Source: Saprospiraceae bacterium (lineage in GTDB: Bacteria > Bacteroidota > Bacteroidia > Chitinophagales > Saprospiraceae). Taken from it: a stretch of 64,000 bases of DNA. This document shows positions 2,312 through 57,867 of the stretch, one piece after another (positions within the stretch are counted from its first letter, which is position 1; every line of letters begins with the position of its first letter). Location: NCBI GenBank assembly GCA_041392555.1, contig JAWKLW010000005.1, positions 4,080-68,079 on the forward strand, read 5' to 3'. A program made the position numbers and the translations under genes. A model generated the notes under the pieces. The model searched no databases and was not told where the DNA came from. It was given only the letters and a program-made list of their open reading frames with translations.

Positions 2312-4438
2312 TTAGTATTTACTAATTTCATTTCCTGCAATAGTTACTGTCGAATCGCTAAATGTCTTGATAATAAAGAGGATATATCTGCCATCTACCA
2401 TTATATCCTGCATATTGCAAGGTCATAATACAAATCGTCATTGTACCCTCCTAAACTCTATCGAAATTGATACCTACAAAATTTCCTTTGGCATCTAAAA
2501 CTCAAGCCATTGCCACCGGTTGTATGATTAGTACCGATATAATAGCTCAACAGAACCAGTCTTTTCAAATTCACCAAAATCTCCTTTTCATAGACCTCAA
2601 GCACCAGCAGGAATATCGAACTCATAATCCCCGTGGGAATATTTCATCACACCTTCCAGATGAGTAAATGGTTCATAATATACCGCATCTGAGGCTATAC
2701 TCACCTGCCCATGCGATCCTCAAAGTACTATTAGCATCAGGGAAGAATTTTCTTTTCGAAACACTTCAAGTTGAGCCAGCATATATCTCTTCTGCAATGA
2801 ATCTATTGTTTGTTCCAATCTATTATATTCAGGAGCTATTTATCATTATTCAATTCATTGACTTCATTGGCAAATTGATATGCCACATCATTATTTAGCT
2901 GCTCAAAAACATTTTTTAGCATCATCAGATTCCAATACTTTTTTCAAACTATCAACATTTATAAATTTAGAACTATAAACATTATTGGTAAAAATATCAA
3001 AATCCTCATCAGTATTTAAATTATTTAATGGTTCAGGAATAAATTTTTCTTCTCAGATGAATTCTATATAGGATTGATAAAGCTTTAAAAATCTTTATCT
3101 ATCACAGTATCCATTTGAGAATAAATTCCTGAAATATTATGGTATCAGCCTTGATTTGTATTCATTATATGCTTCAATACCATTATTTTCATATATTTTT
3201 GCAATCTTGAAGTCAAACTCATGATTCTGACAAAATCCAAATTTCTCACATAGGTCTCATAGATTTTATTTTCTGCAAGCAGATAATCTTTATAATCACC
3301 ATAAACTGAACAAAACTCCGTCAATAATTTACCATATTTGCTTTCAAGTTCAGGATGTTGCTTTAATTTCTCACTGAATAATTCCTCATATTCCATTTTC
3401 TTCTCAACAGCATCAGTATTATTGATACCCTGGTTTTCTCTATCCATTTCTTCCAATAATTGGCAATACCTGCAAATTTTGAAGCTAATTTCAATTTTGT
3501 TGCTTCATCTTTCCTCATATATTTATCCATGATACCCAATGCTACTTCTCTTATATTTATCAATTCAGGATCGAGTTTATTGGCTATCAGGTCAACTCCC
3601 AATGCAGGCAAATACTCTTGTGTAGTTCGGGAAAACCAAAAACCATTGTAAAATCATTTTCTTCTAATCCGCCTTTTGAAACTGGAAGATAATATTTGGA
3701 TTTATAAGGTATATTTTCATCAGAATATTCTGCCGGATTGTTATTCTTATCGGCATATATTCTAAATATAGAAAAATCTGCATTATGTCTTGGCCACATC
3801 CAATTATCGGTATCAGCACCGAATTTTCCCACAGCTTCCGGAGCCACTCCTACTAATCTGATATCTTTGAAAATCAAATTTTTGAATAGATAATATTTAT
3901 TCCCATAATAAAATGGCTTTATTTCGATGGTATGAAATGCATCCTCAGTGTACCTGCTCTTTACTCTATTTATATTCAAATCCACAACAGATTGAGATTC
4001 AGCCATACTCATATCATCATTGACCCCCGACAATATCTCATCAGTTACATCAATTATCTGCTCCACAAATGTCACTGTCATGCCATTTGCAGGCAACTCT
4101 TCATCAAAAGACTCTGCCCAAAATCCATTTTGTAACAGATTATTTTCCACTGTACTCAACCTCTGAATAGAACCATAACCACAGTGATGATTTGTTATTA
4201 TCAAACCCTGATTTGAAATCACACTTCCGGTACATCCTCCTCCAAATTTCACTATCGCATCTTTGATAGAGGGTTCTGTTTCATTGTATATTTTATCTGC
4301 TTTAATCTTAAGTCCCAATTTTTTCATATCCTTTTCAGTCTGACCTTTTAACTCACTTGGAAGCCACATTCCTCCCTGACTGAAAACTGAAAATTGAAAA
4401 ATCAATTGAATTATAAGAATGGAGAGAACTTTGCGCAT
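2312..4438 (-). pseudogene. S46 family dipeptidyl-peptidase (DPP7/DPP11-like), at least 4 frame disruptions
   Basis: The N-terminal ORF 3587..4534 has a signal peptide (MRKVLSILIIQ from 4438) and GGCTGSVISNQGLIITNHHC. It continues through ORFs 3363..3611 and 3145..3456, then in shifting frames to ...ILFIIKTFSDSTVTIAGNEISKY-stop at 2312. The C-terminal TTGGN...VLDAKGNFVGINFD block is visible. Confidence 0.7.
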
Positions 4439-4634
4439 GATATTGGTGTATTTGATTAAATTACTAAAAGACATTAAACCTAATTTGAAAGCTAAATAAT
4501 TTTTCAATTTAGGATAAATATTATTTTTTTTCAATATTAAAAGTGATTTTCATATATATTTGTTCATCAAAAATTGATTTTAAGTACTTTTATTTTCATA
4601 ATAAAATTATCTTTACATAATAATAACTATAAAT

Positions 4635-5697: not shown

Positions 5698-5997
5698 ATG
5701 GAAAACAGAACTCTCAAGGACTTTTATAATGAAATGACAGAATTGATAATTAAATATATTAATTCTTACATAGTTTTATTCAAACTGGAGATAACAGAAA
5801 AACTTGTAAAATTAGGCTCTTCCATTGTATCTGTATTTATCATATTGATATTCTTTTTTTCTATATTTCTGTTGCTTTCATTTTCATTGGCTTTTTGGTT
5901 AGGTTCTTTATTCGGTTCATTGAGTTTAGGATTTTTGGCTTCAGCAGGAATTGACTTAGTATTATTGGCGATATTAATACTACTGAAAACACATTGA
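5698..5997 (+). CDS. small two-TM membrane protein (Holin-X/DUF1469-like, commonly found after ytxH)
   Basis: 99 aa with two hydrophobic helices. It sits directly downstream of the YtxH gene. Confidence 0.5.
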   Translation: MENRTLKDFYNEMTELIIKYINSYIVLFKLEITEKLVKLGSSIVSVFIILIFFFSIFLLLSFSLAFWLGSLFGSLSLGFLASAGIDLVLLAILILLKTH

Positions 5998-7675: not shown

Positions 7676-9774
7676 CTATTTCAATACTGTTACATCGCCG
7701 GAAAACTCTCTTATTACCATCAATATCGGTACATTCTATTATATAGACATAAACACCAGGAGACACTGCATCCCTTAAAACTTACCATTCCAATAGATGT
7801 ATTTATCATCATTTATTTCAGTTATCAATTCACCCCATCTATCGAAAATCATGGCATTGACACTTGAAGACAAATAATCAGAAAGATTGACATACCAAGT
7901 ATCATTGTAACCATCTCCATTAGGAGTAAATATATTAGGTATAACAGTAATTATGACAACATTTTGGAAGTAGTATCAGAACACCCGAATTCATTTTGAG
8001 CTACCAGTGTTACTACATATCCCTTGCAGGCAGGTTAAGATTTGTGTAATTATGTGTGATTGAATTTCCGGTATAACTATATCCATCACCCATATCCCAA
8101 TAATAATCTACATCATTTTCCTCGTAAATATTGGCGCTAACCAGACTATTTCCTTGACTAATTTCTCTTGGCGAAAGGTTGAAATCAGAATAAGTAACCT
8201 TATATACATTTACTGAAACTTCATCTTCTTTAGTACAACCATTTTCATTTATCCCCACTACACTATAATTACCTGTTTCACTCACATAAATACTTGAAAT
8301 GGTATCACCAGTACTCCAGGCATAAGTTGATGCACCTAAGCAGATAACACTACAGTATCCCCTGCACAAGCTTCAAGAGCACCATCGATACTAAAATCCC
8401 AGTATTTATCTTCATTTACAGAGAAAATATATAGTATCTGAAATACATCCTGTAGAATGTCCTACCATCCAAAAATCTCCTCCGGATCACCTACTGTTAT
8501 ATTATCATCATGAGAGCCATCACTCCAATCATATATAGCTGCCCCATAAGCATTTATTTCCACTTCCTCTCCCCGGACAATATATACTATCACCCTCCAC
8601 TCCAACCAATGGTGGAGAAAATGATTCTACAACTTTTTCTATTGTGTCAGTACAATTAGAGGGTGTATTATACACGACTAAAGTGACATTATGCAAGCCT
8701 GAAGTTTCAAAGCTATATTCAGGATTTGAGCTATAAGATGTATTTCCGTCATTAAAATCCCACATATATTCAAGTCCTCCATAATTGGTACCGATAAATT
8801 AATAAATTTTACTGTATTGGATTGGCAGTCGAGCATCTCACTGTCAAACGATGCTGAAGGCTCATATTTTATCACATTAGTTTTCATCTCCACATCGCAT
8901 CCTGTGGCTGAAGTCATTTTACAAGTATATTTGACACTTGATTGTGGATTTTCAATTTCCACTTCCCTTTCATCGCTTGAGAAACTACCATCTGAAGCAG
9001 TCCATTCATATTTTCAAAACCATCCGTATGCATCAAGAAACCAGCAATGCTATCCTGACTACAATATTTCACTGTCAATTCAGGAGGTTGGCATGTTGCA
9101 ACAAAATAAGCATAACCATAATGCTTCAGGTGAGTACAATCGGCTGCTAAAAATTCAATTGTTATTGTCCTTCCTATATATGCACTCAAATCAGCACCCA
9201 CTGTTGTCCAATCTCTCCACACCACCGGGTCACTCTGATTGGAAAGCTGATATGTTTCAAAACTTCCGCTTAGAGATGCTTCAGTGGCATAGACATCATA
9301 ATTGGAACAATCCTCTATCTCCTCATCATTTTCATCATATAATGTAATTTTGAATCTCGGCTCCTCCCATACCTCATGATTATTGGTTGGGTCAAGAAAA
9401 ACCACAGCAAATTTATAGATAATCAGAGCATTGGAGGAATCGATAAGCAGACTATATCTCAAAGTAGCAACAGAAGTATTGTTTATCAAATCACCTAATC
9501 GGGCAGAATATTCAAATCCATCAGGTATTACTTTAAGCTTATTTCCAGTATTAGAATCATATGCAGACTGATCTGTCATAATGGTTTGCATATCATAACT
9601 CAATACAGGATCAGTAGATTGAACTTGCGAAATAGTACTATTTACCCAAGTATATCCTGTCCAATTTTTAAAATCACCATTTGAAAAATCCAGATTTTCA
9701 CAATGACTATTCTGAGCATTTACACTGACAAATGAAAATAATATTATCAGTAAACTGTAGATTGATTTATTCAT
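7676..9774 (-). pseudogene. T9SS type B (gliding-motility C-terminal domain) surface protein with PKD/Ig-like repeats, multiply frameshifted
   Basis: Signal peptide MNKSIYSLLIILFSFVSVNAQ at 9774. Collinear ORFs are 8914..9774, 8678..8962, 8529..8765 and 8013..8369. The C-terminus reads ...NAMIFDRWGELITEIN...YIYWNGK...PGVYVYIIECTDIDGN..REFSGDVTVLK-stop at 7676. Confidence 0.65.
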
Positions 9775-13213: not shown

Positions 13214-13285
13214 GGCCCGTTCGTCTAGGGGTTAGGACGCCAGGTTTTCATCCTGGTAGCAGGGGTTCGAATCCCCTACGGGCTG
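13214..13285 (+). tRNA. tRNA-Glu (anticodon UUC)
   Basis: Hand-folded cloverleaf: acceptor GGCCCGT/ACGGGCT, anticodon stem CCAGG/CCTGG with loop TTTTCAT (TTC at positions 34-36), T arm AGGGG-TTCGAAT-CCCCT. Confidence 0.9.
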
Positions 13286-13287
13286 CT

Positions 13288-13329: not shown

Positions 13330-13569
13330 ATTATATCTCAGCATCTAAATTCCTTATCATTATAGCCATAATTTGGATTTAACAAACAATATTTATCAAG
13401 CTATAATTCTACAAAATAAATACAAAAACAACCGAAATTAACACTAAATCTTATTAAGTTTATTGCATATATTTAAAAATTAATTTAACTTGCAGCCGTA
13501 ATGTAAAGAAACGACAGTGGATTGGTGGTGTATACGGATGTTACAGGCAATTAAAAAAAGAAAATATCA

Positions 13570-14679
13570 ATGTTTCCAAAACTTTCAATAAATGCAATAA
13601 ATACTTTTAATCAGGTTGGACTTCTGACCGAATCTTTAATTTACTACCAACATTCAAACTTGATTCTTGACCCAGAAAGTTTTCCTGAAGCGCTAAGAAC
13701 AATTGGTTATGAAAACATGGTAGAATTAATCAAAGAAGGAGATTTATCTATCAATCTGAATTCACAGGCATTAGGTGTTGGAAACCCTGAAGGAACTAAG
13801 TATATTATAAGTTCTTTTTCTTCCAAAAATCATGATAAAGGGAGAATTTTAACAGAATCAACTGAAAAATTATGGGGAAGAAATATTCAATCAAATAATC
13901 AAAAAAAGAACCTATTAAAATTGATAGGTGAGCACAAATATTCGGATGATTACAACAATTTATTATCAAGTGAAATCTTGGATACTGAAAATTTTAAAGA
14001 TTCTATTGTTACCAAGTCCAAAGGAACAGTAAGCAGAGATGAAATTGAAATTGAAATAAAAAAAGATAGTAATGGATTTTTTGACATTCAATCCAATTGT
14101 GATAAAAAGTTAATTGAAGACTCTGCATATCTTATCTGTACAGGTTCAGGACTTTTATATGATTCAACAGCATATAATTCAGAATTAGTAACCAACTCAA
14201 ATATATCAACTTATCCTGCAAGTCGAATACAACGATTAATTGATAAGCGAACTGGAACAGATAAGCAAATAAGAAATTTTCATGAATTTGTTTTACCAGA
14301 ATTTTATGACTTAAAATCTACTGTAGATTCAGGAGTAAAACAATTTGACGAATTCATGGAACTTTGGAGAGAAGCGAAAAAATTCAAAGAATGGTTGAAA
14401 AATGAAGAACCCAATGTTGAATTATTAACTGCTTACATAAGAAAGATAAGCGAGAATAGTTGGTTGGATAAAATTCCAGTCAAAACTTTAAGGTGGATTT
14501 TATTTACTTCAGTTGGTTTAGCAATTGGAGATGTAACCGGGGGTATCGCGGGAACTGCTGCAAGTGTTGGTGTTGATATGTTTGACGATTTACTTTTTGA
14601 CGGAATATTAAAGCGGAATTACAAGCCTAATCAATTCGTCGAAAATGAATATAAAGACTTCTTAAACTTGGGAATATAA
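13570..14679 (+). CDS. hypothetical protein with C-terminal glycine-zipper transmembrane helix (island cargo 1)
   Basis: An intact 369-aa ORF in which I recognise no family. The C-terminus reads LRWILFTSVGLAIGDVTGGIAGTAASVGVDMF (GxxxG-rich hydrophobic helix). Confidence 0.6.
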   Translation: MFPKLSINAINTFNQVGLLTESLIYYQHSNLILDPESFPEALRTIGYENMVELIKEGDLSINLNSQALGVGNPEGTKYIISSFSSKNHDKGRILTESTEKLWGRNIQSNNQKKNLLKLIGEHKYSDDYNNLLSSEILDTENFKDSIVTKSKGTVSRDEIEIEIKKDSNGFFDIQSNCDKKLIEDSAYLICTGSGLLYDSTAYNSELVTNSNISTYPASRIQRLIDKRTGTDKQIRNFHEFVLPEFYDLKSTVDSGVKQFDEFMELWREAKKFKEWLKNEEPNVELLTAYIRKISENSWLDKIPVKTLRWILFTSVGLAIGDVTGGIAGTAASVGVDMFDDLLFDGILKRNYKPNQFVENEYKDFLNLGI

Positions 14680-14704
14680 AAAAAAGCCTGTAACTAAGGC
14701 TATG

Positions 14705-14738
14705 ATGTCCATGCCTCCTAAACGTCGGCACGGCACAT
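14705..14738 (+). terminator. GC-rich imperfect hairpin 26 nt after the cargo-1 stop (terminator-like, no U tract)
   Basis: atgtcc..tgcc[tcctaaacgtc]ggca..ggcacat. It is far more GC-rich than its surroundings and is the positional homologue of 15974..16008. Confidence 0.4.
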
Positions 14739-14755
14739 AGTCAAAACATCAGAGT

Positions 14756-14930
14756 GCGCAAAAACCTATAAATAAATATTAATAATAATTTGTATATGTT
14801 ATTGAATTTTTGTATTATGTAGCATAATACAAATCGAATTAATCAAATTATATGATACCTCATAGTGCTGCTCATAATCTTTTTTATTATTTTTGAATTT
14901 ATTTTTGGAGTTTATGCGTGAACTCCCGTT
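14756..14930 (+). repeat. 175-bp intergenic module, copy A (promoter-bearing leader)
   Basis: Aligns without gaps to 16026..16200 with 10 mismatches in 175 (94%). Confidence 0.9.
14888..14926 (+). promoter_or_regulatory. candidate -7 boxes plus conserved stem-loop inside repeat copy A
   Basis: tatttttg at 14888..14895 and 14900..14907 both fit TAnnTTTG. The ggagtt[tatgcgtg]aactcc hairpin lies at 14907..14926. Confidence 0.35.
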
Positions 14931-14957
14931 GTGTGTCAATTAGGAAAAAGAAAACAA

Positions 14958-15957
14958 ATGTGGTTCGAGAAATTAACAGGATTTGAAGAAAAGTCACCAG
15001 AAAATGTTAGAGAAAAACTTCTAATTGAAAGAGATTCTTTTGTTTCAAAGGCAAATAATGAAAGATTTTTTTTTGGAAAATTAGAGATTCCAACATTAGA
15101 AGAATTAAGGCAAAATAGTTCTCCACGAGAGGTGTACAAAGAAAAAATAGAAATAAGTGAGTGCGTTGGAGATGTCCAACAATTACATACTTTAAAAACC
15201 AATACTAATGCTCTCTTTCAAGCGGCTTCCCAATTCAATCTTTTAGAAATGATTGAGCCAGCTGTTACTCCTGAACATGGAATTGACAGATACGAAAGAG
15301 ATTATACACAAGGTCCAGCTTGTGCAATTGTATGCGGTGCTGGAACAATCTATAAATTACTTTGTAAAAATTGGAAATCAAATAGGTCAAACAGCAAATA
15401 ATCAAGTTGACTGCTTAGAATTGATTGGAGAAGAACTTCAAAATGAACAATTACATCTTTGGTCGATGAAAAATGGATATGCTCTAATCAACCATGAAGG
15501 ACTTTTAACAATCAATAAAAAGTTATCCAGTTTAACTGATGAACAAAGAGAAAATTTAAAAGGAAAATTAAAGGTTGGAATCCAATGGAATACGGAAGTA
15601 ACAATATCTGGTGATAAGCAAAAAGTATCGCAAATTTATTGTTCCGCTTTACCAGTTGCATATTGTCAAACTGATTCAATTTATTGGGAAAAATTCGCAA
15701 GATTGATCTTAGAAGCCACTTATGAGGCAACATTTTTTACGGCAATGAAAAACATGGAAGATAATAATTCAAACTTAGTTTATTTAACTTTAGTTGGTGG
15801 AGGAGCATTTGGTAATGAAGAATATTGGATTTTGGAATCATTGGAGAAAGTGATAAATAAATTTAAAAATGTTCCTTTAGATGCAAGAATAGTAAGTTAC
15901 GGAGAATCGAACCCCAGGATATTAAAATTCATAAACGAATTGAAAAATAAAAACTGA
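14958..15957 (+). CDS. conserved hypothetical protein, ~333 aa once one frameshift is repaired (island cargo 2)
   Basis: ATG at 14958 (MWFEKLTGF). ORFs 14931..15401 and 15253..15957 join if one A is removed from tataaatta near 15352 (GAGTIY|NYFVKIGNQ). Motifs: FQAASQFNLLEM, TQGPACAIVCGAG, LTLVGGGAFGNEE. Confidence 0.6.
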
Positions 15958-15973
15958 TGACAATAAAGTGTAT

Positions 15974-16008
15974 ATGTCCATGTCGGGTAAAAGCCCGCCA
16001 CGTCACAT
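15974..16008 (+). terminator. GC-rich imperfect hairpin 17 nt after the cargo-2 stop
   Basis: atgtccatg-tcggg[taaaag]cccg-ccacgtcacat. The outer atgtccatg/cacat is shared with copy A, while the inner stem differs but still pairs. Confidence 0.4.
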
Positions 16009-16025
16009 ACACGATCCGTCATAGC

Positions 16026-16200
16026 GCGCAAAAATCTATAAATAAATATTAATAATAATTTGTATATGTTATTGAATTTTCGTATCTTGTAGCATAATAC
16101 AAATCGAATTATTCAAATTATATGATACCTTATAGTGCTTCTCATAATCTTTTTTACTAATTTTGAATTTATTTTTGGAGTTTATGTGTGAACTCCCGTT
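16026..16200 (+). repeat. 175-bp intergenic module, copy B
   Basis: 94% identical to 14756..14930 at a constant offset of 1,270 bp. It keeps a TAnnTTTG box (taattttg, 16158..16165) and the ggagtt/aactcc hairpin with one loop substitution. Confidence 0.9.
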
Positions 16201-16253
16201 AGTACCTTATTAAAAAAACGCCCAAGAAAAGCACGTAAATGTTATTTTTTCAC

Positions 16254-16261
16254 TACATTTG
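16254..16261 (+). promoter_or_regulatory. candidate -7 box for the ATPase/RloB operon
   Basis: tacatttg matches TAnnTTTG and lies 22 nt upstream of ATG 16283. Confidence 0.35.
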
Positions 16262-16282
16262 CATTAAAAATATTATAAAATT

Positions 16283-17654
16283 ATGCTAATCAGATTCACT
16301 GTTGAGAATTTTTCGTCATTTAAAGAACGACAATCATTCTCTTTAATACCAGGAAGAGGCACATTGAAGGCAGAACATAAATCTAAACCAATTAATGGAA
16401 TATCTGTTTTAAAAACCTCTGTTATTTTTGGAGCGAATGCATCTGGAAAATCAAATTTGATTAAAGCTATGCATTTTGGAAAGTTGATGCTTATTGAAGG
16501 AAATTTATCAGGGAAACGTATAAATTATCAAAAATTTCGTTTAGATAATGAATTTCAAAATAGAGATACTCGTTTAGAATATGAATTTCAACATCGAGGT
16601 AAAAACTATGCATATGGTTTTGTTTTTAATAATGACATCATAAAAGAAGAATGGTTATTTGAAATAACCAAGAAAAAAGACATTAAGATATTTGAAAGAG
16701 ATATCAGCAAGGAATCAATATTTGATTTAGAGTATCTGTTTAATTTAAATAAAAATAACGAAGAAAAACAGTTTCTAAATTTCACAGCAAAGAACACCAA
16801 ACAATCAATTATTCTTAAGTGAGATAAAAAATAGAAAAGTAAAAGAGAATGTCTCAAATATTGAAGATTTATTAAATACTATTGATTGGTTCCAAAACGC
16901 TTTAAAAATTATTTTTCCTGATGATAAATATAAAGAGGGGCTTAAATTTGAATTAAGTGAAGACGAAAGACTTTTAAATGTTTATGAAGAATTGCTTAAA
17001 TATTTCGATACAGGCATTGAAGGAGTTTGCCTTGAACCAATCGACTATGAAAGTGTTGAAATTCCCAAATTTATACTTGAAAAAATAAAAGAAGATATAT
17101 TAAATCACAAAAGCGAGAATTTAAGAGCATCTATACTGTCAAATAGAAATACAACATATTTTATATCTGCTAAAAATAATGAAATCACCTATCATAAATT
17201 CATGACAAAACATAAAGTATCAGATATAAATATCCCTGAAAAATTTGACACAAGTGATGAGTCTGATGGCACTAATCGTATTATAGACTTTATTCCAATA
17301 TTAATGGATTTATTAAAAGGTGGCAATGTTTTCATTATAGATGAAATGGAAAGAAGCCTACATCCAAACCTTATCTACGATTTATTGGATTTATTTTTAG
17401 AAAAAAGCGAGAACATTAATAGTCAGTTAATATTAGCAAGCCATGAATCATCTTTACTAACACAAAAATTACTGAGAAAAGATGAAGTATGGTTTACTGT
17501 AAAAAATAATGAAGGAGCATCAAAAATACATTCATTAGAACAATATAACATTCGATTTGATAAGCAAATTAGAAAAGATTATCTATTAGGGCGTTTTAAA
17601 GCTATTCCTAAAATTGGAAACAGAAATAAATTAACGGTTTTACCTAAAGAATAA
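16283..17654 (+). CDS. AAA-family (AAA_15/AAA_21, ABC/SMC-like) ATPase with one frameshift
   Basis: Walker A GANASGKSN. Walker B/D-loop FIIDEMERSLHP, followed by ILASHESS. ORFs 16283..16822 and 16992..17654 become one frame if one A is removed at cttaagtgag (about 16816), reading ...SIILSEIKNRKVKENVSNIEDLLNTIDWFQNAL.... Confidence 0.75.
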
Positions 17655-17658
17655 AAAT

Positions 17659-18321
17659 ATGCCACGAGAAAGACAAGAAATATTCAGAGAAAGTAAAACT
17701 GAAGAAAAAGAAAAGATTATAGTACTTGCTTTTGAAGGTAATATAACGGAACAAATATATTTTGAAGACTTTATGTCTGATGAACAATTTAATGATAAAC
17801 TAATATATTTGCATTTATTAAAAAGACCAAAGGATGATACAAATAGTGCCCCTAATCATGTTTTCAGAAAATTAAAAAGAGAAGCTCGGGATGAATATAA
17901 TTTTGCACCCAATGATGAATTATGGATGATTATTGACACAGACAGGTGGAAAAATATTCCTGAAATAATCCAAGAATGCAAAAAACAAAAAAATATGTTT
18001 GTTGCCGTTAGTAATCCATGTTTCGAATTTTGGATTCTTTTACATATAAAAGATGTTGATTCATTAACAGAGCAAGAAATAATTGACATACTAAACAATA
18101 CCAAAATTTCAAACCACAAACGTTATATTGATGATTATATTGGGAATTTATTGCCAGATGGTTATAATAAAACAAACCCCAAGCCTGATAGATTTTTCCC
18201 TCATATTGACTTTGCAATTTCGCAGGCAGAAAAGTTAGACATAGAACAAAAAGATTATCCCACAAGTATTGGGTCACACGTATATAAAGTGATGAAAAAA
18301 ATAACAAGGCATAATAAATAG
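17659..18321 (+). CDS. RloB-like protein (Toprim-like partner of the upstream ATPase)
   Basis: IIVLAFEGNITEQIYF N-terminal block and the SNPCFEFWILLH motif characteristic of RloB-like proteins. It starts 4 nt after the ATPase stop. Confidence 0.75.
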   Translation: MPRERQEIFRESKTEEKEKIIVLAFEGNITEQIYFEDFMSDEQFNDKLIYLHLLKRPKDDTNSAPNHVFRKLKREARDEYNFAPNDELWMIIDTDRWKNIPEIIQECKKQKNMFVAVSNPCFEFWILLHIKDVDSLTEQEIIDILNNTKISNHKRYIDDYIGNLLPDGYNKTNPKPDRFFPHIDFAISQAEKLDIEQKDYPTSIGSHVYKVMKKITRHNK

Positions 18322-18331
18322 GAATATAAGC

Positions 18332-18373
18332 ATTCGGCACTGCCTGTCCCGACTTAGCAGGAACCCAGCGAAT
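18332..18373 (+). terminator. GC-rich imperfect hairpin 10 nt after the RloB stop
   Basis: attcg...ctgc[ctgtcccgactta]gcag...cgaat. It is followed at 18412..18422 by gaaaaacctat, which matches the first bases of the 175-bp module. Confidence 0.4.
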
Positions 18374-18946
18374 ATTTCCGTTAGCTGACGTATTGAACTA
18401 CATCCACTCTTGAAAAACCTATGTACTAAATGAAGTTTTTTATAGATTTTGGAGAATAATAAAGTATAGGAATAAATTGGATTTATATAGTTTCTGTTAA
18501 TCTTTATGGATTGTTTTGTTTGTGATTTATATTTTTTGTTGTGAAATATACAAAAATAATATACACTTTTTATGGTTATTAATTTTTTTTAATTTTACTC
18601 ATTCATTTGAAAAATAATTTAATATCTAATTGATTTTAGAAAAACTAAATATCATACCTAATAAAATAGTATCAAGTTTCAAAGAATTACCAATTGGGCT
18701 CAGATACATATATCCTTCCATAGCTTTAGCATTATTCTATGTTGGATTAATTATTAAAAACCCGATAATGAAAGATGTCTATTTCAGTTTATTGAATCTT
18801 ATCGTCATGATAACTTTATTGCATTATAAATACGAAAACAGGAGGGGAAAAAAATAAAAATACTACAATGAGGCCTAATAGACAAAAATGATGCTAAAAA
18901 CCTTTAAGAAGCCGATAAATACAGATATTTACAGAAATGAAAGGTT

Positions 18947-19863
18947 ATGAATAAAAAAAATGCTTTTACTGTAATAGTACAATTGTCAAGAAAAATGGCA
19001 AAATTAAAGGGAAACAGAGGTACAAATGCTATGCATGTGGAAAACAATTTATAGGAGGCAAAAGAATAATCAAAGAACAATTATGGAAAAAATATGTAGA
19101 AGGGAAACAAACATATTCACAATTGTCTCAAGAATATAGTTGTTCAATCAGGACGATCCAAAGATATTTGGATAAGATACAAGTAAATCATTATGAAAAG
19201 CAAAGGCGAAAAGTAATCGTGTTAATGGATACGACATATTGGAGGAGAGGGAGTTTTGGAGTAATGTTATTTAAAGATGGTATAAGTGGAGAGAACTTGT
19301 TAAAATACTACGTAAAATATGAAACCAATTCATTATATGGTCAAGGAATAGAGGAATTGAAAAGCAAGGGATTTGAGATAATTGCAATAGTATGTGATGG
19401 GCGCAAAGGATTAATACAAATGTTTAAAGATATACCAGTACAAATGTGCCAGTTTCATCAAAGTGCAATAATAAGAAGATATTTGACAAGGCGTCCAAAA
19501 CTGGAAGCATCATGTGAATTGATGGAAATAATGGATATGATGAAAAACACTGATAAAGAAAGCTTTACAGAGTGTTTAATGGAATGGCATGATAAATGGA
19601 AGTCCTTCCTTAATGAAAGGACAATAAATGAGGAAAACGGAAAATCTCACTACACACATAAAAAATTGAGAAGTGCATATAACAGTTTAAAAAGGAACTT
19701 CCCATGGTTATTCACCTGGTATGATCATATAGATTTGAAAATTCCAAATACTACTAATGCCATAGATGGTCATTTTTCCGATTTAAAGAAAAAATTGAGA
19801 TGTCATAATGGAATGAGTGAAAGACGAAAAAAACAATTTATAGATGAGTTTTTAAAGGCATAA
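18947..19863 (+). CDS. DDE transposase with N-terminal zinc ribbon and HTH; frame broken in an A8 run at codons 3-5
   Basis: After ATG 18947 and the A8 run (18953..18960), the frame reads KCFYCNSTIVKKNGKIKGKQRYKCYACGKQF (CxxC...CxxC). It then joins ORF 19123..19863, which carries DTTYW, VCDGRKGL and CQFHQ (D...DG...CxxH, Mutator/IS256-like pattern). Confidence 0.7.
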
Positions 19864-51381: not shown

Positions 51382-54300
51382 TTATCTTACAATTGTTATA
51401 TCTCCAACAACTTTCATATCATCTCTTTCCTTCAATTTGAATACTATATAGTAAACATATACTCCTGGAGATAATTTTTTACCTTTATATTCACCATCCC
51501 AACCATCTCCTATATCATTTACATTAGCATTTTCAATCGAGAATACATTTTCTCCCCATCTGTCAAAAATCTTCATTTCCTTAATCAATTCAACAGAATT
51601 ATCAGCTGTCACATAGAAGATATCATTTTGACCATCTCCATCCGGAGAAAATACATTTGGAATACTGATATCTACATTTTCCAGATATGTCAATGCTATA
51701 CAATTCAATGCTACACAATTATTCACATCTGTGATTTCAACACACAATGTATCGTCTGCAGTAAGCGCTACATCCACATAATCCTCACATACATCACCGG
51801 AACACAAAACTCCTTCATTTATTAAGTACCAAACTATCTGATCTATTTCCACATTATCAACATTTGTCAATTGATATCTGTTAGTAATTTTTTCTGGCAC
51901 TATTGCTGCACCAAATATTTGTGGATCTAATACTTTAGGATCAGTCAATACTACATTAGCAGATGATTTACAGTTATATTCATCAGTAGCAACGATAGAA
52001 TATGTTCCTGCTTCAAGATCAGTATAAAGACCTAGAAGAGGACTGTCCGTTAACCGTGTATGAAACATTATTTTCCGGACTTATACTTATTTCTCCATTG
52101 CTCTCTCCATTACATAATGGATCATGACTCTCTGCTACTATCAAAGGATTATCTGTTATCAAGACTGAATCCTGAACAGAATATGAGCAATTATCGAGTG
52201 TATAATCGACAGTATAAACATAATTACCAGCTTCAAAATTAGTTAAATTCAATTGCCCGTTTTGACTAATTCCTGTTCCAGACCACGCTACATCACCTCC
52301 AGTAGTTCCTGTAATATCAGCATTTAGAGATAATGTTTGAGCAACATCTGATTTACATATCTGATCAGGCAATCCACTGATGGCAAGTTCTACAAATGGA
52401 CATGGTTCTGTACTACATCCTTTTGTCACTGAAATATTTCCACAAGCACAATCAGAAATAGCTTCTACTGTAAATTCAAATGAAGAATTTGAACTCAAAT
52501 TAGTCATTGAATAACTCGTATTAGCACTATGCTGATTGTAATACCCCATCAACATATACATTGTACTTTGTAGCACAGTCTATATCATTCCAATTAAGTA
52601 CAATAGAATTTGTAGTAGTATCACAATAAAGCTCAGGCTCTACTAATTCAGGATCTACTATTACTTGCTTGCTTACAGTCCGCCATATAACATCCTTCAT
52701 TATCAATATATAGACTGAGATCATAAGTTCCTGCTTTAGCAAAACTCAAATAGAATTTGGAAGCGGAAATATCTGTTCTTACTCCACTCTCATAATTCCA
52801 TGTTTCCACTGCACCACCTGAACCTCACTTTGATTATTGATTACTATACTATCAGTAACACAGATATGATCATCTTCCACTGCAAACTGTGCCAATGGCT
52901 CTTGAATCACTGTAATATAAAATGAAGCACTTGTATCGCATATTTCTTCATAATCCATAGTTATCAAATGATCCCCTACTCCAGCCACCTGTGGATCAAA
53001 TACACCTGTACTGGAATTTACTCCCGCACCACTCCATGTATATGTTCCTGTACCATCTCCCTGAGTAACATTTGCTTCTAATTGTATTGTACCAGTAGAA
53101 CTATTCAAACAAATAGTATCAGGATGTTGTCCAATTGTGATTTGATAATCAGGACAATCTACAGCAGTACATGTCTTAGTACTTATTCTGTTTCCACATA
53201 CACCACCATCAATAGCTTCTACTTTAATCGACACTTCATCTCCTGGAGTCAAACCTCCTTGCAAATAATTATTGACATAAGCACTATCGACTTTTATTCC
53301 ATCGATATAAATTACATATCCCAATGCTAATGGATCCAAATCCCAAGTAAAATTAATATTATTTGTAGTAGGATCACATTTTATTTTAACTGGATCAAGA
53401 GTATCCTGAACCAAAACAGGAATTTCTGTAAGTTCAGACATACATCCATTATTCTCAACATTGAGTTTAATTTTCTTTTCCTATAGTATTCCATTTTACT
53501 GTCTGAACTCCCAATCCTGAACCGAAGTCACTACACCGCTATCATAATCCCAGTAGGGACTCCATTAGGTGCATTTCCTGTATAGGTAACTTTCACTTCA
53601 TCAGTTATACAGATAGTATCCTTATTTACCACAAAATCAGACTTTGATTTTCAATTACCCTTATAGTAGCAGTTTTAGTATAAGGACATTCAAATTCAAA
53701 ATATTCAAATTTAATCTGATGTGTACCAACACCTGCAACCGAAGGATCAAATAATCCTGTTTGAGGATCAACAATTCCATTTCCGGAATAAGTAATCACT
53801 CCTGCTCCTAACGGATTTACTGAATTTTGTATAACAAATGGTTGATTTGTCCCATCATAGCAGATAAAAGTATCCAAAGGACTTAAATCTACTGATACTT
53901 CAGGGCAATCTTTAGCAAAACATTTTACTGTATCTGAATAAAATGGAGGGCAATAACTATCCGGAACAACATATAATGAAATCGATACTGAATCTAATGG
54001 AGCTAACCCCGTTACTACATACTCATTACCATTTTGTGTTCCAGTAATACCATCTACCAAATCTACCGTTACATCATCAGCACCATCAATATTCCATAGT
54101 AATGTTATGGAGGTAGAATTAGATCTCACAATCTACATTTACATCTCCTATAGGTTGTTCAACATTTACATATTCAAGATTAAGACCTGAATTACATCCA
54201 TTTTCAACTACTTCCAAGCGAAACTATTTATCTCCTGAAGTTGCCCATGACACTCATGCACCAGTCCAACACCTCCGTACCATTTTCTACTGTACCTCCA

Positions 54301-57300
54301 CCAAAGTTCCATAGTATATGTTGCATCTGATGAACCAGATCCTGTATATTCTATTGTGGCAACATCTGTTAAGCAAATGGTATCAACTATACTAAATAAT
54401 GCATCAGGCCCAGGAGTTATTTCTATAGGAGTACATATAGTATCTGAAGAACCACATTCCTCATTATATGCATAATAACAGAGATCTCCTCCGGATGAAC
54501 CATACCAATTTATTGTAATTCCCAAACCATTATTATCTACCACTGCTGATGTAACATCATCAGGATATATCCAATGATATGTATAATCTGAACTATTGGA
54601 AATAATACTATAATACCAGTTATCACTCGAGCTGCTACAAATTTCAGTATCCCATGCATTAGCTTCCGGAGCTTCAGGTAAAAATTCTGCCAATTCTATT
54701 GTCAATTCATCAAATTCAGTAAAATCACAATATATACCGTATGAAGGGACACCAAGCACAAATTCCACTGAATAATCTCCATCATCAGCAACATTTATTT
54801 CATAAGGAGTTGATGGGTCATCATCAGTAATTTGGGAGCCATTCCAATACCAATTTACCTCTATTGTTTGCCCTACTACTGAAGATATGTAATCCGGATA
54901 AAATACAATTTTTATAGGTTTTGTAGGATCACCTGAACATTGTGCATCTATATATCCTCTAATTTCCAAAAATTTAATATTAATAGTATCTCTCAAATCA
55001 CATTCATCAGGATTTGGATTTGGCACCACTACTATTTCATTTGAAATATCACTAACATATTCTTCATCAAAAATAATCATTGGGGTACCAACACATCCAA
55101 CAGTATCTATTGTTCTTCCTGTTAAAGGAATTTCTACAATTTCCACTAATTGATCATAAGTACATCCAAATTGATCATTTAATGTAGTTGAATACTGACC
55201 TGCAGAAAACAGTGTACCTCCTTCCCAATCATCAGGATCAAAGCCCTGTTGTAAATCATTTTCACACACTTCAAATAATCCTAAATCTTCAGGTGGCAAT
55301 TCTACGACATTAATCTCAAATTCAAATAAATCCCCATCATTACAATCATTATAACCATATACAGAAATAGTATAAGTACCAGCATCAGTGAAACTTGTTG
55401 AATATTCAGGATCTTCTGTAGTGCCAACTTCTACACCATTGATACTCCATAAATACCCTGAAGCATAAAGAACATTTTCAATATAAAAAGTAACATCGGC
55501 ACCTACACAAATATCCTCGCATGTTGGGAAATTAGAATCACATGGTATCCATCAGGACCTTCCACAATAGGAGCACTTCCTCCATCTAAAATCTCCAACC
55601 AATAGGTGCACATAGTACCTGCACATCCATCTATGAAAAAATAATATGTTGATCCAATTTCAAGATTATATAACTGAACCGAATATCTCCAGGTGATACA
55701 CAATCGCATTGTAAAGCAATTGGATTTTCCATATCGCAATCATCATAAATACCCCATTGAATACCTATATTTCCACCTCCGGACACACATCCATTAGCAT
55801 GTATTATTAATGATATATTTGTAGATCCTGCAATAAATGCAAACCAAGACGGATTGTGAAAAGCATATCCACCTCCACAACCAGGGATTGTTACTTGTTC
55901 CCAGGCAGGAACCATAGACTTACAAAAATCATTTAATTCAAATAATTCACAAAGCACATCAGCTTCTTCACATTCTCCAGCTGTTTCACTAGGACAATCT
56001 GTAGGAGGAATAACATAATAACCTGCATCTATATTCCTATTTTCTTCTCCTGATTCAAATGTCAAAACATCTGTCCAACCTGAAACTTCATCTATATCAC
56101 TATCCACTTCATTAGGTCCGACATTTTTCAATGTAATATTAAATGTAGCCGGGGTAGTAAATACCAAATAATAATCACCAGGTTTCATATTTTGATCATT
56201 ACCAAATGCATAATTACCATTAGCGTCTGATGTAGTTGTTCCAATAGAAACTCCAGCACTGGTAAATAATTCAATAGCAACATCTGCCATAGCAGGTTCA
56301 CCACTATCCTGAATACCATCAGTATTCAAATCCCTCCAACAATAATCTCCAACTGTAAATGGTTTATAAAAACCTGCATCCCAATCCGTTGTGGATTCAC
56401 CTGAATTAAGAGTGAAATTTATAGTATTTCCAGTATTTACATTAGGGTCACTATCTTCAACATCCGAACCCTGATCCTGATCAGTAAAGAAATACTGAGC
56501 AGGTCCTGCAAAAGTCAGGTAAAATTCTCCTGGTCTTATCTTAAACGATGGAAAGCTAAAGGAATAAAGTCCTCCTGCAGTTGTTGTATTCCATGATTCC
56601 GAACCATCTGATCTATTTAATGTTACATTGACTCCATCTAAACCCGGTTCACCATCCTGAATACCATTTCCATTCAAATCGTCCCAAGCAAGATCTCCCA
56701 CTGAGATATATTGGAAAAATCCTGCATCTATATTTTCTATTTCATCACCACTAACAATATCGATATCATCAGTATCTCCTGTTCCTGGATCCGGATCACT
56801 ATCGGTTGTAGTTGCTCCAACATGTTGCAATGTTATATCATCCATTCCTCCGGGAATATCAAAATGCACAGTATAAGTACCAGGAATGATATCAGTAAAA
56901 GTATATAAACCTCCACCTGATGTTGTTGTATTAACAGGAGTTATAGCTGTTCCATTTCCGGTAGTTCCTGAAAGCGTAACACTTACTCCATCGAGATCTG
57001 TTCCATCATCCTGTTGTCCATTTCCATTTAAATCTTCCCAAGTATATCCTGATATTGTACCAAATTGATAGTAACCAAGCATCTATTGTAGAATTTGTCT
57101 CATCACTATTCAAAGAAAAGGCACTACTTTGTCCTCCATTTGCTGGATTAGCGTCACTATTATTATTAGTTGGTAGCTCCTCCAACTTCAAAATATGTAT
57201 AATTATAATCTGGTAGATTATTACTAAATGTTACCACATAGGCAGCTCCTGGTGGCACATCATCAAATTGATATGCTCCACCTCCAGATGTAGTTGTGGA

Positions 57301-57867
57301 CATACTCACTGTATTTCCAAGTCCATCTGTTCCATCCAATGAAACATCTATCCCATCCAATCCATCAGGATCATTTTGTAGTCCATCTGCATCTTCATCT
57401 ACCCACACATAATCTCCTACTGTACCAAAAAGGAAATATCCTGCATCGACATTCGTTATGGATTGTCCTGCAGATAATGTATAAGTTAAAAAAGTAGTTT
57501 CATTCACATCAATATCACAATCAGCACCTCCAACAGAAACTTCATAACCAGGATTACTAAAAACAAGATAATAACCACCTACCGGAAGATCTTCAAAAGA
57601 ATAATCCCCGTTAGCATCAGTATTCATAGGATTTGTCAGTCCTGAAACAACAGCAGCAGCTCCTGTATTATCGTCATATAGAGTAACCTGTACTCCTGCT
57701 ATTCCATTTTCCCCGCCTTCAAACCATCACCATTGAGATCGTGCCATACTTTTCCGGAAATTAAAGGAGCTTGTGCATTTAGAGAACTCACAAAATTGGT
57801 ATTTCCTACCCAACTAATCACAGTCCACAAAAATATTAAAAATAAAACCCTTTATTGGTTTTAACAA
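51382..57867 (-). pseudogene. giant (~2,160 aa) T9SS type B surface adhesin with SdrD-B/Cna-B-like repeats, more than 10 frame disruptions
   Basis: At least 12 collinear minus-strand ORF pieces (for example 57166..57627, 55631..57082, 54208..55299, 52779..53441, 51382..52068). Repeated W.DLNGNG.QD...G..GV.V.L units near the N-terminus. The C-terminus reads NVFSPDGDGQNDIFYV...IFDRWGENVF...PGVYVYYIV...GDITIVR. The start is tentative (TTG at about 57867, then ...FLIFLWTVISWVGNTNFVSSLNAQA). Confidence 0.65.

Follow-up and report, generated by a model that had tools for sequence, protein, structure and literature searches.

The 64,000-nucleotide stretch analysed here, referred to as the window (positions 4,080 to 68,079 of contig JAWKLW010000005.1, assembly GCA_041392555.1), belongs to a metagenome-assembled genome (MAG) of a Saprospiraceae bacterium and has a G+C content of about 30%. 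Its region at 13.5-18.4 kb, beside a tRNA-Glu gene, forms a short array of three cassettes, all on the + strand, which contain the genes cargo 1 and cargo 2 and the two-gene AbiL defence operon. These are very probably integron-type cassettes in a CALIN-like arrangement, a CALIN being a cassette array without a nearby integrase (Cury et al. 2016, as summarised in PMC8618304). Two GC-rich hairpins (A and B) are read as attC-type sites at the ends of the first two cassettes, and the 175-bp repeat (the module) behind each of them as the core of a gene-less, probably promoter-carrying unit in a cassette slot; this combined reading is the one we favour, with moderate confidence. Loci outside the window are cited by L numbers, and an arrow in a motif marks the junction.

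Cassette ends and cassette boundaries

Hairpins A and B possess the conserved flanks ATGTCCATG...CACAT, with an inner stem of TGCC/GGCA in A and of CGGGT/GCCCG in B; refolding returned the structures of the initial annotation, with conserved outer arms and differing yet pairing inner stems. Each site is an imperfect inverted repeat 3' of an open reading frame (ORF) and has an ordinary length of about 62-70 nt, within the range of about 57-141 nt for attC. The first site (attC1) begins 7 nt past the stop codon, the second (attC2) at the stop codon. Folded as RNA, both hairpins reach a z of about -1.8; folded as single-stranded DNA, the bottom strand of the two sites gives z values of -3.1 and -2.9, compared with -2.3 and -0.8 for the top strand. 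Bulged bases, candidates for the extrahelical bases of attC, are present.

The attC assignment rests on this anatomy, on folding and on a covariance model built from seven sites of the present analysis. The seven aligned sites form one bulged hairpin in which 78% of the cells pair, against 27-46% with slid partners, and 9 stem pairs are changed on both sides, e.g. ATGATG...CACAT in the window against ACAACG...CGTGT in L017. Between 0 and 7 of 500 shuffles reach the observed pairing values, in a test that comprises only seven sequences and a structure derived from those same sequences. The structural covariation first proposed from the two window copies therefore holds on more sequences. The covariance model (R1) detects exactly two sites in the window, 14684-14757 (79 bits, E 1.7e-19) and 15954-16027 (78.9 bits), and further sites after the cargo homologues in L016, L017, L018, L020 and L027-L029.

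L027 shows the conserved triplets AAC (R'') and GTT (R') in both of its sites, and L017, L016 and L012 likewise possess them. L020 deviates with AGC...GTT in the site after cargo 2 and AAC...CTT in the site after its TIR gene. In the window, three of the four triplets are mutated (AAC...ATC in attC1, AAT...GTC in attC2), so that these are either degenerate copies or junctions made differently.

The boundaries of the cassettes are given by metagenomic contigs that carry the same cargo genes at 87-96% identity, and whose matches to the window begin and end exactly at ...G↓TT. For cargo 1, window positions 13528-14745 correspond to L027 95-1312 with 96.8% DNA identity, and the match ends at the GTT crossover on both sides; L027 and L028 carry the cargo 1 homologue at 95% amino-acid identity and differ from the window upstream of the GTT at 13540. 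L027 reads ...ACGTT↓ACAGGC, leader, cargo 1, TAA, AAAAAGCCTGTAAC, AAGG, the same hairpin as A, AAACC, GTT↓CGGTGCC and the next gene, which is followed by GGCACCGAAC, a hairpin like B of the window, AAGACC and GTT↓. The second L027 attC is homologous to attC2; its inner stem differs in sequence and still pairs. For cargo 2, similarity to L016, L017 and L020 (87-91% amino-acid identity) starts at 14926-14945 (...CCGTT↓GT) and ends at 15968-16008, the DNA similarity stopping past the stop codon plus TGATGACAA.

The AAC box at the stop codon of a cassette returns, in reverse complement, as the first 9-10 nt of that cassette, with the boundary at G↓TT, as is found in attC-bounded cassettes. In cassette 1 of the window, this relation links GTTACAGGC at 13540 with GCCTGTAAC at 14686; the further pairs are GTTCGGTGCC/GGCACCGAAC, GTTACCAGTA/TACTGGTAAC, GTTGTCATCA/TGATGACAAC and GTTGGCTGTA/TACAGCCAAC. 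Such an end complement of 9-10 nt occurs in 6 gene entries, i.e. 5 different cassettes with cargo 1 counted twice (window and L027), compared with 2 of 196 mismatched pairs that reach 8 nt. Because the boundaries in L016, L017, L020 and L027, the R''/R' boxes and the bulged stem match the anatomy of integron cassettes, the hairpins are, as judged from their sequence, attC-type recombination sites at cassette 3' ends, in which an AAC box after the stop codon is followed by a bulged stem-loop, then by a 5-nt spacer and by G↓TT. Recombination at them would presumably depend on an integrase.

The sister arrays consist of small unrelated genes on one strand (Ank, Macro, TIR, GIY-YIG). L016 (1-4233) contains cargo 2, Ank, a 153-aa protein, Macro, a 65-aa protein and proteins of 163 aa and 197 aa; L020 (1-3155) contains TIR_2, cargo 2 and a LEM-3-like GIY-YIG protein. 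Several intergenic sites of L016 and L020 are without a perfect R''/R' match. In L017, a direct repeat of about 50 nt (ACGCCCCAGGTGAGAAATTTTAGCGGAAG...) is located at 60-110 and 1850-1900 around the cargo 2 cassette region, inside minus-strand ORF fragments; it may derive from paralogous genes or from the ends of insertion sequences (IS). Among the distant cargo homologues, L021 and L023 lie in an ordinary chromosomal context and L024 possesses only a decayed attC (20 bits in the covariance model).

The array has no integrase gene with attI at its head: upstream are the tRNA-Glu and housekeeping genes, downstream is an IS256-family transposase. Neither a tyrosine recombinase box-II motif in six frames nor an ORF of this kind was detected in the 64-kb window by a crude test, and we call the array CALIN-like because of this absence; its two sites supported by the covariance model are 1270 nt apart, and no integrase was found within 64 kb. 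The integron- or CALIN-like array of the initial annotation is thereby retained, without the "atypically long" sites also suggested there: the attC-like sites have the ordinary length given above, and the module is a unit of its own.

Two other functions of the hairpins were rejected. As intrinsic terminators they lack a T run behind A or B and are not listed by the terminator scan; as for a known RNA, neither they nor the module match an Rfam family, at gathering or at permissive thresholds. A third hairpin had been annotated at 18332-18373, behind RloB. This GC-rich segment ends in CCG↓TT, yet it is not significantly structured and folds no better than shuffles (z +0.7 as RNA, +0.1 and -0.2 as DNA). 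A GC-rich patch proposed at 13492-13548 is real and ends at the true junction GTT↓ACAGGC at 13540; it likewise has no fold better than shuffles.

The repeated gene-less unit and its relatives

The two copies of the module, 14756-14930 and 16026-16200, align without gaps at an offset of 1270 and with 10 mismatches in 175 positions (94% identity), exactly as first annotated. The mismatches are located at 14765, 14811, 14816, 14817, 14842, 14861, 14870, 14887, 14890 and 14917. A 29-mer of the module has two exact occurrences in the window and is reached in 0 of 100 shuffles. Weaker similarity extends to the left as far as about 14703 (ATGTCCATG, offset 1269); the right edge is sharp and lies immediately past ...AACTCCCGTT (...GGAGTTTATGYGTGAACTCCCGTT). 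The module is the core of a 180-nt unit that fills exactly one cassette slot, twice. Unit A starts next to A14748, the counterpart of the G of the L027 GTT, and ends with G14928, before the TT of cargo 2. At the orthologous junction of L027 the module is absent and the same attC goes straight to the next cassette; the module has therefore been added as a unit and does not belong to a long attC. All six of its frames are closed, so that no small protein is encoded, and inside the module neither a match of the covariance model nor an AAC box upstream of the terminal hairpin was found. The left end of module B (TCATAGCGCGC, 16019-16029) corresponds, in exact reverse complement, to 11 nt with which the L027 cassette behind the homologous attC starts (GTT↓GGCGCGCTATGA, about 2049-2063).

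At its 3' end the module possesses two TAnnTTTG boxes (14888 and 14900 in copy A), a hairpin with a 6-bp stem, GGAGTT (14907-12)/AACTCC (14921-26), and then CCCG↓TT, where the next cassette begins. The boxes are kept despite neighbouring substitutions and the single change in the stem-loop lies in the loop, which agrees with the initial annotation. TAnnTTTG, the -7 promoter box of Bacteroidota, is a consensus known from Bacteroides and Flavobacterium. The cargo 2 start follows the two boxes at a distance of 58-70 nt, against a window background of 1.2 boxes per kb and strand. Cargo 2 would need a promoter unit because its own leader is only 29 nt long. The gene-less unit would supply the cassette behind it with a promoter of the Bacteroidota type and with a stem-loop near the transcript 5' end; judged from motifs and comparison, this assignment is tentative and falls a little short of an even call.

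A shared promoter or leader, as initially proposed, is plausible from these motifs. Co-regulation of all cargo through the module does not follow from the layout: cargo 1 is without a module, and AbiL does not need one, because its similarity to the non-cassette loci L030-L035 includes a TAnnTTTG promoter of its own (TACATTTG). The second copy would most simply derive from a segment of two units (cargo 2, attC2 and module) that went into CCCG↓TT of a module already in place, or from unequal exchange.

Extra module copies are lacking in the window and in 200 kb of related loci (3-mismatch pattern search, nhmmer, blastn-short), and the closest homologues of cargo 2, cargo 1 and AbiL (87-95% amino-acid identity) are all without the module. 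A "vestige" of the module had been annotated behind the third hairpin; the 10 nt at 18412 do exist, but 413 of 500 shuffles align to the module at least as well. A possible module remnant between the tRNA and cargo 1 was also rejected, its alignment being no better than shuffles. The sequence GAAAAACCTA occurs at 14760-14769, at 18412-18421 and in L024 at about 5915-5935 (there directly before the start codon of a Dam methylase), near the start of non-coding or leader sequence; its recurrence may be due to chance in A-rich leaders.

Related elements were obtained by a scan of 185,579 species genomes and JGI metagenomes with the pattern TTTGGAGTT-N-AACTCCCGTT, which itself imposes the terminal motif. 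The same hairpin with CCCGTT is present in other Bacteroidota MAGs (L001, L002, L003, L010, which equals L013, and L012), always on the sense strand and 21-73 nt before a start codon. The genes behind these elements are unrelated and encode an AraC-like regulator, a leucine-rich-repeat protein, a CNNM-type transporter, a FabK/NMO-like enzyme and a 317-aa protein. A 13-nt block, TTYAYTATTTTWG, which is not imposed by the search pattern and holds the first TAnnTTTG box, is common to the module and to L001, L002, L003, L010 and L012; a transcript starting after this box would begin just before the hairpin. Four of the related elements share about 100 nt with each other, but with the window nothing beyond the last 60 nt or so. 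This element of about 100 nt is >90% identical between L002 (1042-1165), L003 (356-480), L010 (1223-1330, = L013 1558-1664) and L012 (2214-2320) and ends in GGAGTTTAAGCGCAAACTCCCGTT. It stands before unrelated genes in a minimum of two or three MAGs of Bacteroidota, one of which carries it on two contigs, and by its sequence would behave as a dispersed promoter-like repeat. In L012, the gene of the 317-aa protein has TACAGCCAAC after its stop codon, which matches GTTGGCTGTA at its start (10-nt R''/R'), followed by a 135-nt attC ending in CCAACCGTT↓; this gene is proven to be a cassette. Three independent cassette 5' junctions are thus located exactly at CCCG↓TT of the motif, those of cargo 2, AbiL and the L012 317-aa gene.

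Several observations weigh against the favoured reading. No integrase is seen in the part searched, i.e. 64 kb of a contig of 199.7 kb. A -33 TTTG at canonical spacing was found for neither box. The module has no attC of its own, as a gene-less cassette would, and its unit starts with TC rather than TT. The end pairing GCGCAAAAAC/GTTTATGCG of copy A is weakened in B and has no counterpart in the related elements, and the largest palindrome (14809-14833) has 3 uncompensated mismatches in copy B. AbiL, with its own promoter, can do without module B, and the window type of module was not found elsewhere in the 185,579 species genomes, the JGI metagenomes and plasmids.

The main rival holds the module to be no cassette at all, but an attI-like docking site with a cassette promoter; we regard this as unlikely, if still worth serious weighing. 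Its conserved end (...GYGYRAAC-TCCC-G↓TT...) would be a double-stranded simple site with inverted integrase-binding boxes around the crossover, comparable to attI1 (CCTAAAAC-AAA-G↓TTAGGC), and cassettes would have entered two such pads of the window by attI x attC insertion. The three cassette junctions at CCCG↓TT agree with this, as does a terminal 27-nt motif common to otherwise unrelated elements in several Bacteroidota MAGs; an attI needs no attC, and L001 and L003 remain alike beyond GTT (RKGTGGCATTT) before unrelated genes, as an unoccupied site would. However, no integrase gene adjoins any of the seven copies, whose upstream neighbours in the other MAGs are ordinary genes, and two pads in one array, each behind an attC crossover, are not a known integron layout. 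The boxes were, moreover, assigned by eye from seven copies, four of them near-identical, and the motif TTTGGAGTT...AACTCCCGTT was imposed by the search pattern. A bolder form of this rival, in which the module end (TAnnTTTG box, GGAGTTT-N6-AAACTCC hairpin, CG↓TT) would be a portable promoter and docking pad for integron-type cassettes of Bacteroidota, independent of an adjacent integrase, appears quite improbable to us. Such a free-standing attI-like pad would occur before ordinary genes as well as inside arrays, and cassettes landing on it would be expressed at once; the integron platform would then exist as separate, dispersed parts.

Equally doubtful is a non-functional remnant of a cassette whose ORF was lost, copied along with cargo 2 as a passive passenger through unequal homologous exchange or slippage, and whose boxes would be due to chance in AT-rich sequence. 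It would account for there being only two copies, adjacent, 94% identical and found nowhere else, for the decay of the array (ATC, GTC and AAT triplets, frameshifts in cargo 2 and AbiLi) and for the uncompensated palindrome mismatches of copy B, and the left end of module B, TCATAGCGCGC, has the form that the R'' box of the third L027 cassette (GTT↓GGCGCGCTATGA) would take. The terminal hairpin with CCCGTT is, however, conserved in distant Bacteroidota and there always on the sense strand before genes, a TAnnTTTG box is kept in both copies next to substitutions, and the 29-nt leader of cargo 2 leaves no room for a promoter of its own. Very unlikely, finally, is an array served by a system other than IntI, such as rAID-1 of Bacteroidales with its XerD-family recombinase and integron-like intergenic repeats. 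The Bacteroidota host, the immunity- or defence-type cargo (PARG/macro fold, Ank, TIR, AbiL) and the repetitive intergenic sequence reminiscent of integrons in the arrays described (10.1101/471110) would suit it, and no integrase is at hand to type. Against it stand the close attC anatomy (AAC/GTT, G↓TT crossover, cassette start complementary to R'', bulged hairpin of 60-135 nt), the report of close recombinase homologues only in Bacteroidales (10.1101/471110) and the lack of a recombinase adjoining the array, no XerD being located at its head in the window.

Other identities of the module were tried and rejected. One giant attC (R'' GCGCAAAAAC, R' GTTTATGCG) fits copy A, but both boxes are weakened in B, the true junction is 18 nt further and the related elements have no R'' partner. 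For a remnant of a group IIC-attC intron or of IS1111-attC the module is too short and AT-rich and lacks the expected ends (by inspection only). A miniature inverted-repeat transposable element or mobile promoter element is contradicted by the lack of conserved terminal inverted repeats and by the two copies being adjacent and the only ones in the window and in 200 kb of related loci, and a plasmid or phage origin by the lack of any match.

Cargo genes and surroundings of the array

The coordinates of the array and its parts are compiled in Table 1.

Table 1. Features of the cassette array and its 5' flank in the window
Feature	Position	Strand	Remarks
tRNA-Glu(TTC)	13214..13286	+	ARAGORN and Rfam; chromosomal flank just 5' of the array
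3' part of attC-like site ending in GTT (13540-13542)	13483..13542	+	left junction of cassette 1 at crossover G13540↓T13541
Cassette 1	13541..14748	+	29-nt leader, cargo 1 (13570-14679) and its attC
attC-like site 1 (hairpin A)	14686..14750	+	R'' box GCCTGTAAC, bulged stem 14698-14742, spacer AAAAC, degenerate R' (ATC; GTT in L027)
Gene-less unit A	14749..14928	+	module core 14756-14930; bounded by crossovers on both sides
Cassette 2	14929..16018	+	29-nt leader, cargo 2 (14958-15957) and its attC
attC-like site 2 (hairpin B)	15955..16020	+	R'' box TGATGACAAT (AAC changed to AAT), stem 15968-16012, spacer GATCC, R' GTC
Gene-less unit B	16019..16198	+	module core 16026-16200; boxes at 16158 and 16170; terminal hairpin 16177-16196
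Cassette 3	16199..18380	+	39-nt cassette-type leader, native AbiL promoter, AbiLi, AbiLii/RloB, GC-rich 3' segment ending in CCG↓TT (18380)

Cargo 1 encodes a 369-aa protein of a rare unannotated family with 22 homologues and has no match in Pfam, PADLOC or NCBIfam. Cargo 2 is frameshifted near 15354 and belongs to a very large, highly conserved family of about 329 aa, with >7000 members of 65-91% identity across Bacteroidota. This family (P0001-P0120) has no sequence match in Pfam, NCBIfam or the PDB. Its AlphaFold model (predicted local distance difference test, pLDDT, 78; predicted template modelling score, pTM, 0.85) is matched by Foldseek to bacterial poly(ADP-ribose) glycohydrolases (PARG) and macro domains with E values of about 1e-4 and TM scores of 0.4-0.55, so that cargo 2 is a PARG/macro-fold protein by predicted fold. 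Members of the family were observed in cassette arrays and also in ordinary chromosomal settings (L021, L023).

The third cassette contains AbiLi (16283-17654, frameshifted) and AbiLii/RloB (17659-18321), identified as AbiLi/AbiLii by PADLOC and as AAA_21/RloB by Pfam. Compared with the non-cassette loci L030-L035, the operon is 86% identical in nucleotide sequence, only over 16240-18304, a stretch that includes the conserved AbiL promoter TACATTTG at 16254. Foreign to these loci are the 39 nt before AbiL (the leader after CCCG↓TT), the last 15 nt or so of RloB and the GC-rich 3' segment. This pattern gives the AbiL unit the look of a defence operon of two genes that has only recently acquired a cassette frame, or was caught soon after cassette formation.

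Just past the array, at 18950-19863, lies the IS256-family transposase, a Zn-binding variant (NCBIfam NF048019, E 5e-109) with its N-terminal part in another frame. Split or truncated genes of the window are located at 3587-4534, 8914-9774, 14958-15957, 16283-17654 and 51382-57627, and comprise an S46 peptidase, cargo 2, AbiLi and a large adhesin of the type IX secretion system in about 7 pieces. The array looks partly decayed, with R' ATC and GTC before the modules, R'' AAT in attC2 and the frameshifts in cargo 2 and AbiLi. Assembly error is not separable from real decay, however, because many other genes of the window are broken as well; they point either to an error-prone MAG assembly or to widespread pseudogenisation, which limits any claim of decay.

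Comparison with known systems

Integrons are known in Bacteroidota (PMC8618304, PMC9668308) and have been little studied there; the present array is a clear case, at the level of sequence, of integron-type cassettes in Saprospiraceae. Their cargo is of a defence or immunity type, with AbiL and the predicted PARG/macro fold in the window and TIR, Ank and GIY-YIG in the sister arrays. As a promoter, the gene-less unit would show how cassettes remain expressed in the absence of the cassette promoter Pc; as a docking site, it would change the view of how integron platforms are organised in Bacteroidota.

The statement of the initial annotation that no described element matches the layout is too strong, since CALINs, defence cassettes and gene-less promoter cassettes have been described (PMC8618304, 10.1101/2024.07.02.601686, PMC11014356). 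The array itself is a known kind of system. With CALINs it shares unrelated, mostly promoterless genes on the same strand, each with an imperfect ...AAC/GTT... hairpin, G↓TT boundaries, compensatory changes and the lack of an integrase nearby. It differs in its Saprospiraceae MAG host, in the 9-10-nt R''/R' complementarity, in the mutation of 3 of 4 triplets and in the two slots filled by a repeated gene-less unit without attC.

Anti-phage defence systems occur as integron cassettes in Vibrio chromosomal integrons with IntI and attC of the Vibrio cholerae repeat (VCR) type (10.1101/2024.07.02.601686). AbiLi/AbiLii resemble them as a cassette-like unit with its own promoter beside other defence- or immunity-type cargo, whereas the AbiL unit has no convincing structure at its 3' site. 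rAID-1 (10.1101/471110) has in common with the array a Bacteroidota host, small immunity-type genes and a repeated integron-like intergenic sequence; in contrast, no XerD-like recombinase is seen in the window, and the order is Saprospirales, not Bacteroidales.

For the gene-less unit, the attI and Pc platform offers a likeness in that cassettes begin exactly at G↓TT, with promoter-like boxes just upstream and no folded partner required. Unlike the platform, the unit has no adjacent intI, stands inside the array and does so twice, and similar elements in other MAGs precede ordinary genes of the chromosome. Vibrio superintegrons contain gene-less cassettes with promoters on the sense strand (PMC11014356), and gene-less promoter cassettes are also present in the integrons of oral Treponema (PMC6557892). 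Like these, the unit of the window is short, non-coding, placed in a cassette slot and oriented to read into the next cassette, and would relieve the silence of cassettes distant from Pc. The promoter cassettes of Vibrio and Treponema end, however, in a normal attC, while the unit starts with TC and ends in a 6-8-6 inverted repeat with CG↓TT, occurs twice at 94% identity, and has a putative promoter. Already described are thus defence genes in cassettes and promoter cassettes (10.1101/2024.07.02.601686, PMC11014356); what we did not find described is a repeated gene-less unit that lacks an attC and ends in a motif common across Bacteroidota.

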